NCBI RefSeq assembly: GCF_003334815.1
Contig: NZ_QOWO01000075.1
Reading direction: 5' to 3' (one strand)
DNA from: Escherichia coli
GTDB taxonomy: Bacteria > Pseudomonadota > Gammaproteobacteria > Enterobacterales > Enterobacteriaceae
Length of the DNA stretch: 4,783 bases
The notes under the pieces are model-generated. The model was not told the DNA's origin and did not search any database. It worked only from the letters and a program-made list of their open reading frames with translations. This document shows, one piece after another, positions 1-4,783 of the stretch. A program made the position numbers and the translations under genes. Position 1 is the first letter of the stretch. Each line of letters begins with the position of its first letter.

Positions 1-200
1 GGTCCCTCCTTCCCGTCTGCCGTGATTTTCCGGTCGTTCACCCGCTCAGATTTCGCGGTCTCACCCTCCAACTCCCGTCAGCCGTGTGCGTCAGGCTGCG
101 GCTTCCCTTGCGCCCTTGCATCCCCGCCTTATCGCCCGGCTTTTCTGGAGGCACGGCACCGCCCGGTGTCGCGGAATATGTGAACAACGGAGGAAATCCC

Positions 201-626
201 ATGCAGTATGCGAAACCTGTCACTCTGAACGTTGAAGAGTGCGACCGCCTTTCCTTTCTGCCTTACCTGTTTGGCAACGATTTTCTGTATGCCGAGGCGT
301 ATGTGTACGCGCTGGCGCAAAAAATGATGCCGGAATATCAGGGAGGCTTCTGGCATTTCATCCGCCTGCCGGATGGTGGCGGTTACATGATGCCGGATGG
401 CGACCGTTTTCATCTGGTCAACGGTGAAAACTGGTTTGACCGCACTGTGAGTGCTGATGCCGCAGGTATCATCCTGACTTCCCTTGTGATTAACCGCCAG
501 TTGTGGCTGTACCACGACAGCGGGGATGCGGGACTGACACACCTTTACCGGATGCGTGATGCGCAGTTGTGGAGCCACATTGAATTTCATCCCGAATGTA
601 ACGCGATTTACGCAGCACTGGACTGA
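201..626 (+). CDS. klcA: Anti-restriction protein, ArdB/KlcA family (141 aa)
   Basis: ATG at 201 preceded by GGAGG (189-193, 7-nt spacer). Translation carries family-typical blocks: [36 protein letters not shown] and C-terminal AIYAALD. The 141-aa length fits this family; the upstream in-frame start at 84 has no RBS and would give a poorly coding GC-rich extension. Confidence 0.85.
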
Positions 627-672: not shown

Positions 673-1092
673 ATGTACTGTACTGTTAAAGAAATTATCC
701 GCGAAGTGCTGAATACAGACGTGCCGGACAGTGAATGTGTTTTTGCCGTGGTGCTGACCCGCGGGGATGTGCGCCACATAGCCCGGGACTGGAACCTGTC
801 AGACGATGAGCTGGAAACCGTCATGCAGCGGCTGGACGATGCTTTTGTATATGGCGCATGTGACAGAGTTGTTTCCGATATTGTCAATGAACTGATGGAG
901 GAAAAGCGCGTAAACCGTCTTGTAACAGTCCCTGCGGTGCTGCTGGAAAAAGTGATGGTGATGGCTGGTAGTGAAATTTATCGCCTCCATGCTGTAGGGA
1001 GCGAGAACGGGGGCGACGGTGACGCATTTGTCAGGGAAGAACGTGAGATTATGCGGGTAATGCGTCAGGCACTGGACGGGGAGAACGGGTAA
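673..1092 (+). CDS. Hypothetical leading-region protein, 139 aa (possibly DUF1380-like; assignment from memory, unverified)
   Basis: ORF with GGAG at 661-664 and 8-nt spacer to ATG 673. Acidic protein with coding-like composition; same strand and tight spacing with neighbours. Stop TAA 1090-1092 overlaps the next start. Confidence 0.75.
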   Translation: MYCTVKEIIREVLNTDVPDSECVFAVVLTRGDVRHIARDWNLSDDELETVMQRLDDAFVYGACDRVVSDIVNELMEEKRVNRLVTVPAVLLEKVMVMAGSEIYRLHAVGSENGGDGDAFVREEREIMRVMRQALDGENG

Positions 1093-1283
1093 TGAATATC
1101 AGCACGGAAACCCGCGAAATTCTGCGTAATTACAGGGCCGTGATTAATGCGCGGCGTCGTGAAATGGGGCAGAAACCGCTCACCACCGCGCAGATTGTTG
1201 ATGAAATCTGTGATTTTGTGGCGAATCAGCAGGCGGTTTTCCTCGGTGGTCACTACATCCTTCAGGGCAGCAGGCACAGGTGA
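1092..1283 (+). CDS. Small hypothetical protein, 63 aa, translationally coupled to the upstream ORF
   Basis: TAATG stop/start overlap at 1090-1094; GGGGAG at 1078-1083 with 8-nt spacer. No recognisable motif; called on context and coupling only. Confidence 0.5.
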   Translation: MNISTETREILRNYRAVINARRREMGQKPLTTAQIVDEICDFVANQQAVFLGGHYILQGSRHR

Positions 1284-1310: not shown

Positions 1311-1448
1311 TCAGCCCGCGCGAAAACCCCTGGCAGGCTGGCGCCTGCCGGAAGGGATGCGGGCCACGCTGGCGCGTCGCCCGTTACCCTTCCCGTTTGT
1401 GATGTGTCCGGAATGTTTTTTCCTGATGTTATGTTTCTGTGGTTACTG

Positions 1449-1477
1449 TTCTTCTTCTTCTTCTTCCTCTTCTTTCC
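1449..1477. repeat. Polypyrimidine simple-repeat tract containing (TTC)6 at 1449-1466
   Basis: Direct reading: ttcttcttcttcttcttc followed by ctcttctttcc; pyrimidine-only on the + strand for 29 nt. Confidence 0.9.
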
Positions 1478-1837
1478 GTTCCTCTCCTGTTTATGCCTTT
1501 TCCGGGCGTCCCCCTGGCGGGGCGGGCTGTCGTGAACGGAGCCAGCGGAGCTGTCTCCGCCCTGGCGGGCTTCCATCCCTGACGCAAAACCCCGGGTTTG
1601 CAGCGACCGGAACGGTCGCGCCACCCTTGTCGCGCCGTGGCCTGCGCTCCTGGCATCCCGGCAAAAAGACGCCGGGATGTAAGGCGCAACGCCGTTTCGC
1701 GCACGCGCTCTCCGTCGTTGCGGCGGGTCCCTGCTCATTGCCTGCCGGGTGCCACACACCCGTATGAGTCCCTGTCGCCGGGGGCTGATACAGCCACAAC
1801 CTGCCGCACTGACTGTCCAGGGTAAATGAACAGCCCA

Positions 1838-1873
1838 CAAAATTTTTTACCCAGAACCCGGTAAAAAATTTTG
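1838..1873. other. Perfect 14-bp AT-rich inverted repeat (CAAAATTTTTTACC / GGTAAAAAATTTTG) with 8-nt spacer
   Basis: Arms 1838-1851 and 1860-1873 are exact reverse complements. Flanked by a further imperfect pairing, 1813-1821 with 1882-1890 (8 of 9), suggesting a longer imperfect hairpin centred near 1855. Confidence 0.8.
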
Positions 1874-2252
1874 CGTTCTGCCCAGGACAGGTGCGTCAGG
1901 CCGTGGCAGTGATGCCCCTTGCGGCGAAGGTTCTCAAACGGGTGAAGTTCATACCACAGGGAATACAGCAGCAGGTTCCCGCGAAACGTCAAAACCGCGG
2001 CTCCCGAAACTCAACGGGTGATGTTCTTTAAAAATCAGGATTTATTTCAGGCTCCGGCAATACGCATTTATGTGTTCTGTCAGCATCCTGCTGACAGGTA
2101 ATGAGAACGCAGGAACAGAAGGAGGAATACACCGGAAAACGTCAGATGCAGATATGAAAAAAGCAGGTCAGGGACCTGCTTAATCCACGCCGAAGAGACT
2201 GTGCAACCAGTCTTTAAGGCACTGTTACCAACCTGTCATAAGGTATCCATTT

Positions 2253-2483
2253 ATGACTGTAAGCATTGTTTCACCTTCCGCAGCGGCTGTAAAGCCCCGT
2301 CGTCATACCCGTTTCAGACGCGAAGACATCCCCGCGCCGGAAATTGACCCCGTGCTGAAAGCCTTCGGGCGACACATTGCCCGGAGTTTTCGCCGGGGGC
2401 GTGGTGTACACATCCCCGCCATGAAAAACACGGCTTTCGGGCAGGTGCTCCGCACACTCGAACTGAAACGCGCTTTTAACTGA
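2253..2483 (+). CDS. Small arginine-rich hypothetical protein, 76 aa (possibly DUF905/UPF0401-like; unverified)
   Basis: ATG 2253 with weak SD (AAGG 2240-2243, 9-nt spacer); first ORF downstream of the structured element; co-oriented. Many R/K residues (KPRRHTRFRRED, RSFRRGRG). No motif recognised with certainty. Confidence 0.55.
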   Translation: MTVSIVSPSAAAVKPRRHTRFRREDIPAPEIDPVLKAFGRHIARSFRRGRGVHIPAMKNTAFGQVLRTLELKRAFN

Positions 2484-2534: not shown

Positions 2535-3896
2535 ATGACATTATCAGCAATCACCATGACCGCCCCGGAAGCCGCCAGCCCGGTGCAGATGTACCGCGCG
2601 ACCTACTCACCGGATGATAACAAACTGCGCCTGTATGCCGCGTCACGTCTTGACCCGGAGACGTATAAAAAAGTGCATGATGCCGGTTTTCGCTGGGCAC
2701 CAAAACAGGCGCTGTTTGTCGCGCCAGCCTGGACACCGGGCCGGGAAGACGTGCTCCTCTCACTTGCCGGAGAGATTGAGGATGAAGACAGCACGCTCGC
2801 TGAACGTCAGGAAGCACGGGCGGAGCGGTTTACCGGATACAGCGGAAAGCGGGCCAGTGAATCCGCACAGGCACTTGATGAAGTGGAAAGACTGGCCGCG
2901 ATGATCCCGCCCGGTCAGCCCATTCTTGTGGGGCATCACAGCGAACGCCGCGCCCGTCGTGATGCGCAGCGTATTGAAAACGGCATGAAACGTGCCGTGA
3001 TGCTCTTTGAACGTGCGGAATACTGGGAAGAACGGGCGCGGTCGGCACTGCTTCACGCGAAGTATAAAGAACGCCCGGACGTTCGCTGGCGTCGTATCAA
3101 AAAAATCGAAGCGGATTTGCGCAAGGCTGAAAAGACCATCGCACAGTCGCAGAAATATCTGACGATGTGGCGGGCTGAATCGCTGGATCTGAATATGGCA
3201 AAACTCATCAGCAGTCATGACCATATCAGCGCCTGTTTCCCGCTGGATACGTATCCGCGCCCGGCAGAAAAAAGCCAGTATGAAGGGAGCCGGTCGTTAT
3301 GGTCGGCCCTGGATGATGACATCATCACCACGGAGCAGGCCCGCGAAATTGCGATCCGCTGTCATGAACGGCAGATTCAGCATCAGCAACGCTGGGTTAA
3401 CCACTATCAGAACCGCCTGATCTATGAGCGTGCCATGCTGGACGAAAGCGGCGGCGTGGTTACCCGGACACAGGATTTTGAGCCGGGCGGACAGGTTTTC
3501 AGCCGGGGCGAGTGGCTGACCATCATCCGCGTGAACAAAAGCAACGGGGCGGTGAGTTCAGTCACAACGCCGAATTACAGTTTTCTCGGGTACAGCGGCA
3601 CGATGAAAGTGACGCCCGATCGCATCACGGACTACAAAGCACCATCGGCAGAAGAGGCTGCCGTCGCCAGTCAGGCCGCGAAGCGTCCGCCGGTAGTCAA
3701 CTATCCGGGGGAAGGTTTCCGGGAAATGACAAAGGCACAGTGGGCCGCCCTGCCCCGGGACTGTAAGGCCGTGCGCAGTGTGGCAGAGACAGAAGACCAC
3801 GGGGCATACCGCTACCGCCGCACAATGGATAATAATTTCCGCCTGGTGAGTGTGTATATTACCGACATGAAAATCACGGAAATCCCACAGAAATAA
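2535..3896 (+). CDS. Protein of unknown function, 453 aa (possibly DUF3560-type leading-region protein; unverified)
   Basis: Long ORF with RBS AGGAG at 2523-2527 and 7-nt spacer to ATG 2535. Central highly charged, probably helical segment (ERQEARAERF ... RRARRDAQRIENGMKRAVMLFERAEYWEERARSALLHAKYKERPDVRWRRIKKIEADLRKAEKTIAQSQKYL). No catalytic motif recognised by eye. Confidence 0.9.
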   Translation: MTLSAITMTAPEAASPVQMYRATYSPDDNKLRLYAASRLDPETYKKVHDAGFRWAPKQALFVAPAWTPGREDVLLSLAGEIEDEDSTLAERQEARAERFTGYSGKRASESAQALDEVERLAAMIPPGQPILVGHHSERRARRDAQRIENGMKRAVMLFERAEYWEERARSALLHAKYKERPDVRWRRIKKIEADLRKAEKTIAQSQKYLTMWRAESLDLNMAKLISSHDHISACFPLDTYPRPAEKSQYEGSRSLWSALDDDIITTEQAREIAIRCHERQIQHQQRWVNHYQNRLIYERAMLDESGGVVTRTQDFEPGGQVFSRGEWLTIIRVNKSNGAVSSVTTPNYSFLGYSGTMKVTPDRITDYKAPSAEEAAVASQAAKRPPVVNYPGEGFREMTKAQWAALPRDCKAVRSVAETEDHGAYRYRRTMDNNFRLVSVYITDMKITEIPQK

Positions 3897-3942: not shown

Positions 3943-4506
3943 ATGCACAGTCAGTTAAGAGAACGTATCCGGCTGCTGCGCGCAAGGCTGGATAACGCCG
4001 CACCGGTTGCTGAAATCCGGGCTGAATCTCAGCTTTTTGTGACACCTGCCCCGGTCTGTGATCGCCTGGTGACGCTGGCGGAAATCAGCAATCGTGATCA
4101 CATTCTGGAACCCTCTGCCGGCACCGGGGCCATACTGCGGGCGATTCGGGATACCGCGCCGGAGGCCATGTGTGATGCGGTGGAGAGCAACAGCGGGCTG
4201 GTCCGGTATCTGCGGGAAAATTTTAACGGTGTCAGGGTACAGTGTGGCGACTTCATGGAATGGCAGCCGGTGCAGTATTACAGCCGGATTATCATGAATC
4301 CGCCGTTCAGCCACGGGCAGGATATCCGGCATATCCTGCGGGCCTTTTCCCTGCTGCGTCCGGGTGGCGTTCTGGTCGCCGTCTGTCTGAACGGGCCACG
4401 CCAGCAGGAGAAGCTGTTACCGTTTTCTGACATCCGCGAGGAGCTGCCGCGCGGCACGTTTGCTTATACCCATGTTCCGACGATGATTATTCGTCTGCGC
4501 GCCTGA
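3943..4506 (+). CDS. Orphan SAM-dependent methyltransferase, 187 aa (amino-methyltransferase fold; N6-adenine/N4-cytosine DNA MTase-like, no recognisable target-recognition domain)
   Basis: RBS GGAG 3931-3934 with 8-nt spacer. Motif I (AdoMet binding) ILEPSAGTGAIL near residue 55; motif IV NPPF near residue 119 (IIMNPPFSHGQD). Motif order I then IV and the small size indicate a minimal MTase core. No adjacent restriction endonuclease gene in the window. Confidence 0.85.
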   Translation: MHSQLRERIRLLRARLDNAAPVAEIRAESQLFVTPAPVCDRLVTLAEISNRDHILEPSAGTGAILRAIRDTAPEAMCDAVESNSGLVRYLRENFNGVRVQCGDFMEWQPVQYYSRIIMNPPFSHGQDIRHILRAFSLLRPGGVLVAVCLNGPRQQEKLLPFSDIREELPRGTFAYTHVPTMIIRLRA

Positions 4507-4577
4507 TGACACAGGCAGGCGGGAGGATAAATGCCCGTCTGCCCGTGCCGGGAAAAAGACCGCGCGCCGGTGGCGCT

Positions 4578-4609
4578 GAAAGGGGCCGCGCTGACGCGCC
4601 GCCCCTTTC
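4578..4609 (+). other. GC-rich hairpin downstream of the MTase (13-bp stem with one mismatch, 6-nt loop), contains GCCGCCCC
   Basis: GAAAGGGGCCGCG (4578-4590), loop CTGACG, CGCCGCCCCTTTC (4597-4609). Followed only by a short TTTC, so at best a weak terminator. Confidence 0.5.
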
Positions 4610-4654
4610 ATTGCGCGGACGTTCTGCTGTGGACTTCTGTCTTTTCAGAACGGT

Positions 4655-4783
4655 CATTTGTCTGTTACTGATGATGTTGTTGTTCCTGCTACTGCTACTG
4701 CTACTGTTCTTCTTTTTTCTGCTGCTCTGATTACTGTCTGTTTTGTTGTTCTCCTGCTTATGCCTTTTCCGGGCGTCCCCCTG
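4655..4783 (+). promoter_or_regulatory. Start of a second copy of the Frpo/ssi-like element (truncated by window end)
   Basis: 4751-4783 (ctcctgcttatgccttttccgggcgtccccctg) matches 1484-1516 at 32 of 33 positions. Upstream there are shared ttactgttcttctt and ctgatgtt blocks plus a different simple-repeat tract. Confidence 0.6.
4670..4750. repeat. Compound simple-repeat tract: (GAT)2(GTT)3 at 4670-4684, (CTGCTA)3 at 4686-4703, T-rich pyrimidine run
   Basis: Direct reading of the sequence; differs in unit and copy number from the tract at 1449-1477 in copy 1. Confidence 0.9.

Follow-up and report, generated by a model that had tools for sequence, protein, structure and literature searches.

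Frpo of the F plasmid (also named ssiD, Frpo1, or ssp1a) is the founding member of the single-strand promoters (Masai & Arai, 1997). The folded transferred strand is described as offering duplex -35 and -10 boxes to sigma-70 RNA polymerase, with conversion to duplex DNA turning the promoter off. Early and transient sigma-70 transcription from the single-stranded form is known both for Frpo1 and Frpo2 of F and for ssi1-3 of the IncI plasmids. Early expression in transconjugants is lost when Frpo1 or Frpo2 is deleted (Couturier et al., 2023), and the start sites of class-1 promoters have been mapped by 5' RACE (PMC12672017). Frpo transcripts also prime the conversion to double-stranded DNA, and this priming has been confirmed in vivo. 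The promoters were divided into classes 1-3 by Wen et al. (2025) and have been studied further by Fraikin et al. (2026, preprint). Class 2 (ssp2 or 'Frpo3') and class 3 (ssp3) promoters have the same role and the same strand logic as class 1, but display no sequence similarity to the class-1 repeat. In the literature ssp2 is placed upstream of ardB/yfgB and is also described as a replication roadblock.

Several plasmids carry more than one class-1 promoter. In ColIb-P9 three dispersed repeats head the leading-region operons (Bates et al., 1999). Frpo1 and Frpo2 of F are 92% identical and have been pointed out as a substrate for recombination, and it was suggested that hok/sok protects the intervening segment (Couturier et al., 2023). 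When pO111-CRL115 was compared with pO26-CRL125, a hybrid Frpo repeat was found to mark the gain or loss of a 9.7-kb leading block (Venturini et al., 2013). In a later survey, 6,006 conjugative elements yielded 13,089 Frpo homologues (Samuel et al., 2024; PMC11541004). That repeated Frpo/ssi promoters head operons, and that recombination occurs between them, is already published in outline (PMC3817090, PMC9849209). Single-strand promoters allow anti-restriction and SOS-inhibition genes to be expressed minutes after entry, ahead of the host defences, and this makes them central to the establishment of resistance plasmids in new hosts.

The DNA analyzed here, a stretch of 4,783 nt called the window below, comes from the leading region of an IncF conjugative plasmid, i.e., the part that enters the recipient first. 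It contains one class-1 repeat in full (copy 1), and its last nucleotides, 4743-4783, are very probably the left end of a second Frpo/ssiD/ssp1 repeat of ~541 nt (copy 2); it is equally probable that recombination and gene conversion between such repeats shuffle the gene blocks of IncF plasmids. We found no paper naming the copy upstream of the DUF3560/methylase module, which is an ordinary member of the family. What is new here is a modest survey of IncF plasmids, where this module is found in most and is absent from the laboratory model F. Results based on F thus leave out the copy-1 module, which most clinical IncF plasmids carry.

The leading region and its first promoter copy

Thousands of IncF-type conjugative plasmids from Escherichia, Klebsiella, Salmonella, and Shigella match the window at 90-97% identity in PLSDB; the record counts given here and below are drawn from the best-scoring 5,000 PLSDB records of each search. 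The window is present in 3,869 of the 5,426 complete E. coli genomes. Identity reaches at most 97.3% in PLSDB and 98.0% in the RefSeq complete E. coli genomes. NZ_CP074882.1 (L009), which is 98.0% identical overall and 99.8% in copy 1, is the closest relative found. The other relatives include AP026744.1 (L001), NZ_MT269835.1 (L005), CP148533.1 (L007), and NZ_LT174529.1 (L008); L002, L005, and L006 were analyzed through an alignment of the copies (A1), and L008 through its annotation table only.

In the annotated relatives the left part of the region has the order antirestriction gene, DUF1380 gene, 63-aa ORF, element, 76-aa ORF, DUF3560 gene, methylase gene, element. Then follow ssb, a DUF905 gene, a ParB-like gene, psiB, psiA, hok, another element, small ORFs, a DUF932 gene, an SLT transglycosylase gene, and traM. 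All the leading-region genes are co-oriented on the plus strand towards oriT, which lies to the right. Since the module genes are all found on the plus strand, the transferred template strand corresponds to the minus strand of the window. The features of the window are as follows:

1-172, minus strand: right half of a class-2 single-strand promoter (ssp2 / 'Frpo3' type), 88% identity over 172 nt to candidate Frpo' 4 of Samuel et al.
201-626, plus strand: ArdB/KlcA-like antirestriction ORF (annotation in relatives)
673-1092, plus strand: DUF1380 gene (annotation in relatives)
1092-1283, plus strand: 63-aa ORF (annotation in relatives)
1415-1482, plus strand: pyrimidine-rich variable tract before copy 1, 82% pyrimidine
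1483-2023, minus strand: copy 1, a ~541-nt class-1 Frpo/ssi repeat predicted to act on the transferred strand (blastn, homology to F ssiD); segments A 1483-1590, B 1591-1744, hairpin H 1745-1955, and right end R 1956-2023
1745-1955, minus strand: long imperfect hairpin, the putative promoter-forming stem-loop, with an A/T-rich tip at 1831-1880 (DNA fold, inverted repeat I1)
2024-2252, plus strand: 5' leader, found only after copy 1 (alignments)
2158-2258, minus strand: AS-pc01-like antisense RNA (Rfam RF02875, 68.7 bits against a gathering score of 79, E = 3e-12, full-length model)
2253-2483, plus strand: 76-aa ORF, gene 1 of module 1 (ORF list; hypothetical protein in relatives)
2535-3896, plus strand: 453-aa DUF3560 protein, gene 2 of module 1 (ORF list; RefSeq annotation 'DUF3560 domain-containing protein' in relatives)
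3943-4506, plus strand: 187-aa class I SAM-dependent methyltransferase, gene 3 of module 1 (ORF list)
4577-4610, no strand assigned: GC-rich hairpin closing module 1, inverted repeat I8 with 15-nt arms that are 93% complementary, folding in the transferred strand
4655-4742, plus strand: pyrimidine-rich variable tract before copy 2, 72% pyrimidine
4743-4783, minus strand: first ~41 nt of copy 2 (left end of segment A) as identified by homology, cut by the window end; identity 32/33 to 1484-1516 and 33/34 to 1483-1516

The class-2 element at 1-172 heads the module before copy 1 and is truncated by the window start. The 63-aa protein and the antirestriction protein gave no NCBIfam match. Between the 63-aa ORF and the 76-aa ORF lies a non-coding spacer of ~970 nt that contains copy 1.

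The first-pass annotation had suggested that the element in this spacer is a single-strand promoter, and the comparison with F bears this out. The ssiD/Frpo sequence of F (D90178, taken from the supplement of Samuel et al., 2024) aligns to the minus strand of window 1680-2012 with 78% identity over 340 nt (E = 8e-70), and Frpo2 and Frpo3 of ColIb-P9 align to copy 1 at the hairpin tip. When folded as DNA, the minus strand of 1740-1960 forms the expected imperfect hairpin of ~200 nt (-68.2 kcal/mol, z -8.55), and the hairpin of copy 2 in L001 is very similar in this respect (-68.7 kcal/mol, z -8.73). Hairpins from F-type copies, ColIb-P9, a Serratia plasmid, and an insect-metagenome element were aligned. 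Their consensus stem comprises 24 pairs with 95.5% of the cells paired, and 10 of the 24 pairs show compensatory changes. The members share a bulge of 8-10 nt on the 3' arm and a lower internal loop, and all except the insect-metagenome ones have the A/T-rich tip. No Rfam family covers the class-1 element, the sub-threshold AS-pc01 match being the one notable hit, and a search of plus-strand positions 1284-2534 gave no conventional sigma-70-like promoter.

To look for the promoter hexamers and the start site within the hairpin, conservation, the bulges, and the limits of the Frpo2 construct of Samuel et al. were considered. Two candidate -35/-10 pairs emerged, TTGAGA-N17/18-CATCAC(T) on the 5' arm at the conserved internal loop, and TTGTGG-N17-GACAGT on the 3' arm, which is located beneath the A/T-rich tip and extends across the conserved 8-nt bulge. 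The homology to ssiD, the hairpin, the non-conserved ORFs (see below), and the lack of a conventional promoter in this interval together identify copy 1, as judged from its sequence, as a class-1 single-stranded-DNA promoter (Frpo / ssiD / ssp1). Its position in the leading region, with the transferred strand as the predicted active strand, is the one expected for this class.

Copy 1 differs from the described elements in several respects. Frpo1 of F has the same long hairpin, A/T-rich tip, and conserved bulge, but it is only 78% identical to copy 1 and represents a distinct hairpin allele, which in L004 is found at the ssb position. The three repeats of the IncI1 plasmids ColIb-P9 and pESBL (ssi1-3 or Frpo1-3) belong to class 1 and head the ardA, psiB, and ssb operons (Bates et al., 1999; Wen et al., 2025). 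They share the hairpin architecture of the window element, with compensatory changes; however, the ~79% identity is confined to the hairpin tip, and these repeats head other cassettes, without any DUF3560/methylase module.

From this the following model can be proposed. During conjugation the window minus strand would enter the recipient as single-stranded DNA, and each repeat would form a long imperfect hairpin, a mimic of duplex promoter DNA. There host sigma-70 RNA polymerase would initiate and transcribe rightwards on the transferred-strand template. In this way copy 1 would express the block of the 76-aa, DUF3560, and methyltransferase genes, while copy 2 would express ssb and the genes downstream of it, in the relatives through psiB, psiA, and hok. 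Once the complementary strand is synthesized, the hairpin would disappear and the promoter would be off; the hairpin transcripts might also prime this synthesis. The single-strand-specific transcription, the priming, and the shut-off are taken from the literature on F and IncI plasmids; the present analysis established homology, strand, hairpin and covariation, gene order, and the recombinant and mosaic plasmids described below. By analogy, copy 1, which is absent from F, probably works like the Frpo copies of F.

The repeats might instead serve mainly as priming or roadblock signals for complementary-strand synthesis, with expression of the downstream genes being secondary. It was as ssiD that Frpo was originally isolated, and the priming of DNA synthesis by its transcripts is seen in vitro as well as in vivo. 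Segments A and B are more structured when folded as transferred-strand DNA (z -3.6) than when folded as RNA (z -1.15), and ssp2, of another promoter class, acts as a roadblock as mentioned above. However, when an anti-CRISPR gene is put behind Frpo, the plasmid is protected only if this is done in the leading region and in the transferred-strand orientation (PMC11541004), and co-oriented genes with a ribosome-binding site follow every copy. Priming and promoter activity are moreover mutually compatible, and a predominantly priming role is quite improbable.

Promoter-headed modules and recombination between the copies

In the full-length relatives each class-1 promoter copy stands in front of a co-oriented gene block, as expected if the region has the modular promoter-cassette organization that had been proposed from the window alone. 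Copy 1 heads module 1 (the 76-aa ORF, DUF3560, and methylase genes), copy 2 heads module 2 (ssb through psiB, psiA, and hok), and copy 3 heads module 3, which starts with a yeiA-like 100-aa ORF. A short copy 4 without the hairpin heads module 4 (a 95-aa ORF and the DUF932 gene). It consists of left-part sequence, core positions 108-164, joined directly to 515-541, and has only the right-end segment in common with the full copies. It precedes the 95-aa ORF near oriT at these positions:

L001 19497-19580: short repeat form
L004 14213-14403: short repeat form
L007 6753-6835: short repeat form

The F plasmid itself can be read as a recombinant of this arrangement. It has the order antirestriction gene, DUF1380 gene, 63-aa ORF, one element, ssb, so that exactly module 1 is missing. 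The element in question, Frpo2/ssp1b (Couturier et al., 2023; Fraikin et al., 2026, preprint), is like copy 2 found directly upstream of ssb, the DUF905 gene, the ParB-like gene, psiB, and psiA. The Frpo2 region is 95.8% identical to copy 2 of L001 with its right flank, and has the same hairpin on the same strand. However, Frpo2 comes directly after the 63-aa ORF, while copy 2 of the window follows the methyltransferase gene, since F is without the 76-aa/DUF3560/methylase module. Frpo2 has the left flank and the tract of copy 1 joined to the right end of copy 2. This F-type junction, lacking module 1, was found in at least 267 PLSDB records. Module 3 is also missing from F, where Frpo1 has the right flank of the short copy and leads into the 95-aa ORF. 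This points to a crossover in the right-end segment, and the fact that the short form shares this segment with the full copies could explain why the yeiA-like module is missing.

Other combinations are found as well. Synthetic junction queries, with the best record checked in each case, gave at least 66 PLSDB records consistent with recombination between copies 1 and 3, and at least nine consistent with recombination between copies 2 and 3; the >=80% class of both searches also takes in records of somewhat different structure. In CP148533.1 a single full element separates the 63-aa ORF from the yeiA-like ORF, and both ssb and psiB are absent. According to its annotation, NZ_LT174529.1 has the yeiA-like ORF following the methylase gene with no ssb, psiB, or hok between them. 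The sites that distinguish the parent copies show that the CP148533.1 element has the flank and tract of copy 1 and is of the copy 3 type from the first ~100 nt of the core onwards. Frpo2 of F likewise displays one switch, from the flank of copy 1 to the core of copy 2. Comparing cassette content across related plasmids thus yielded recombinants with a single element and one switch at each junction. A single crossover between repeats suffices to explain each of the natural plasmids, whether it carries one module, two, or three.

The 33-nt core shared by the two ends of module 1 had been put forward as the homology anchor for such exchanges. Recombination between the cores is supported, but it also takes place outside the 33-mer, which some copies lack. 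Since the copies are direct repeats with 85-100% identity, separated by a few kb, homologous recombination and gene conversion between them would be expected to reshuffle the blocks, i.e., to delete, retain, or re-pair them.

It could also be envisaged that a mobile element or a site-specific recombination system inserts units consisting of an element with its cassette, as Venturini et al. speculated for the 9.7-kb IncI leading block bounded by Frpo repeats; the comparisons are compatible with gain as well as with loss of a module. But module 1 encodes neither a recombinase nor a transposase, the junctions each show one switch within a long stretch of near-identical sequence and lack a target duplication, and the mosaics described below affect internal segments while the gene content is unchanged. 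Insertion of this kind is therefore very improbable, and homologous recombination between the repeats remains the preferred explanation.

The relationships between the copies further differ from one segment to the next. In L001 and L002 copies 1 and 2 are nearly the same in segment B (99-100%), yet they are 79% identical in R. In L005 and L006, which are Klebsiella and Salmonella plasmids, copies 2 and 3 are identical over the hairpin (100%). The ssb-proximal copy of L004 has a segment B that is 100% identical to that of copy 3 in L001, and a hairpin allele which is that of Frpo1 in F (92%). The R segment comes in two position-linked alleles, a copy 1 type and a copy 2/3 type, which are 76-79% identical. 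Gene-conversion tracts thus span the middle of the element. Judged from these sequences, recombination between the copies is real and frequent, and they appear as mosaics of the sort that gene conversion would yield. These incongruent segment identities, the absence of module 1 from F, and the plasmids recombinant between copies 1 and 3 and between copies 2 and 3 all support the proposal that recombination shuffles the modules.

The 33-mer belongs to segment A, for which most copies show 95-100% identity. In copy 1 of L005 and L006 this segment has been swapped for an unrelated sequence (35% identity; A1 columns ~650-800), so that the 33-mer is absent. By eye, this alternative segment A looks similar to a portion of the Frpo* candidates that Samuel et al. 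list from Salmonella and insect metagenomes, and this suggests a class-1 promoter with two alternative left-hand modules. L005, a Klebsiella KPC-2 plasmid, also carries a group II intron encoding an ltrA reverse transcriptase/maturase at 3244-4911. It is located in the left part of copy 1, between the 63-aa and the 76-aa ORFs.

The second copy at the window border

Copy 2 corresponds to the element at the Frpo2/ssp1b position, which drives ssb in the relatives. The match between 4751-4783 and 1484-1516 on which it was first recognized was reproduced exactly, with identity at 32 of the 33 positions. A 26-mer inside this match occurs exactly twice in the window, while none are expected from 200 shuffles. 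The first-pass annotation let the second copy start at 4655, directly after the methyltransferase gene. Recognizable homology begins only at ~4743 (TCTCCTG), and 4655-4742 is nothing but variable tract. The start of copy 2 is found ~240 nt past the stop codon of the methylase gene (4506), with the GC-rich hairpin at 4577-4610 and the pyrimidine-rich tract lying in between.

The window covers 34-41 nt of copy 2, and whether the copy is complete is therefore not visible within the window itself. The relatives were used to extend it downstream. L009 has a full copy of 541 nt at 7288-7829, between the methylase gene and ssb, that is 91.5% identical to copy 1 of the window, and in L001 copy 2 is found at 12969-13510 with 94.3% identity. 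According to blastn, L001 contains the repeat three times in full and once in the short form, with identities of 94% and 89.5% to copy 1 of the window over 541 nt for full copies. The junction of methylase gene, element, and ssb is intact in at least 3,323 PLSDB records. By extension from these relatives, copy 2 is probably complete in the molecule from which the window derives.

If the 33-nt match were a short shared motif, such as a protein-binding site or an end-of-operon signal, there would be no full second element. Such a motif could account for the 34-41 nt of similarity seen before the window ends, and the segment concerned, A, lies outside Frpo as originally defined with its 328 nt and is missing from copy 1 of some plasmids. 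But rather than ending after the 33-nt core, the similarity runs on for ~541 nt in every relative examined (L009, L001, L002, L005, and L006), and together with the number of intact junctions this makes a short motif extremely unlikely. A second full element is thus the better description of 4743-4783.

The tract at 4655-4742 is not homologous to copy 1 and resembles a microsatellite. A tract of this kind precedes every copy, and both its length and its sequence differ between copies and between plasmids (A1 columns ~560-660). The tracts are built of CTT, CTG, and CTA units and are consequently purine-rich on the transferred strand. In a minus-strand fold of 4507-4783 the tract is unpaired, and it is thus predicted to be unstructured on the transferred strand. 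Indels in the tract explain why 277 nt in the window correspond to 320 nt in L009.

That the repeat encodes small proteins is next to impossible; ORFs of 85-192 aa on the minus strand do overlap the element and some records annotate them as hypothetical proteins, but in many copies a frameshift or a stop codon interrupts these frames, and the substitutions in the hairpin are compensatory. In L001 such genes are annotated within the repeat on the minus strand at 9956-10213, 12637-13200, and 13222-13479, and the corresponding window ORFs overlapping the repeat are found at 1735-1992 and 1262-1840, also on the minus strand. They are probably annotation artifacts of GC-rich structured DNA.

The left part of the repeat and the genes of module 1

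The 541-nt repeat is longer than the Frpo promoter. The 328-nt definition of Frpo/ssiD in F omits the left ~200 nt, i.e., segment A and part of B (window 1483-1744). This is the most homogeneous part of the repeat among the copies (95-100%), and the preference for folding as transferred-strand DNA mentioned above applies to segments A and B. Together with the purine-rich tract, the left part could act in insulation or termination between modules on the single-stranded template, as a priming or SSB-loading site, or as a maintained homology 'handle' that allows cassette exchange without an integrase. A small hairpin at 1609-1625 (A1 columns ~812-828) is found as two alleles, GCGACCG-GAA-CGGTCGC and GCGACCG-TTC-CGGTCGC. 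These are exact reverse complements, so that the stem is kept and the loop is inverted.

In copies 2 and 3 there is hardly any distance to the first gene, while copy 1 is followed by the leader at 2024-2252. In the methyltransferase the motifs EPSAGTG and NPPF are recognized, and in NCBIfam it matched adenine-N6 rRNA methyltransferases weakly, with every score far below the cut-off. The 76-aa and DUF3560 proteins gave no NCBIfam match. An anti-defence role of the 76-aa/DUF3560/methylase cassette is an assumption.

The leader also contains the AS-pc01-like antisense RNA on the opposite strand. Its first hairpin overlaps the ribosome-binding site and the ATG of the 76-aa ORF. A promoter-like sigma-70 site (2293->2265) and a terminator (2181->2161) are found on the minus strand. 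Since the template for this RNA is the plus strand, it can be made only after complementary-strand synthesis, and it may act as a switch for silencing module 1 when the plasmid has become double-stranded. The combined proposal that the left ~200 nt have a function of their own and that the AS-pc01-like RNA silences module 1 in this way is speculative and rather unlikely to hold as a whole.

A direct repeat of ~290 nt (97-100% identical) is found in L001 at 4181-4472 and 5501-5791. The two copies precede yccB and the gene of an M.EcoGIX-like DNA methylase, at the position expected for a class-3 promoter (ssp3), and this promoter may thus also be duplicated.
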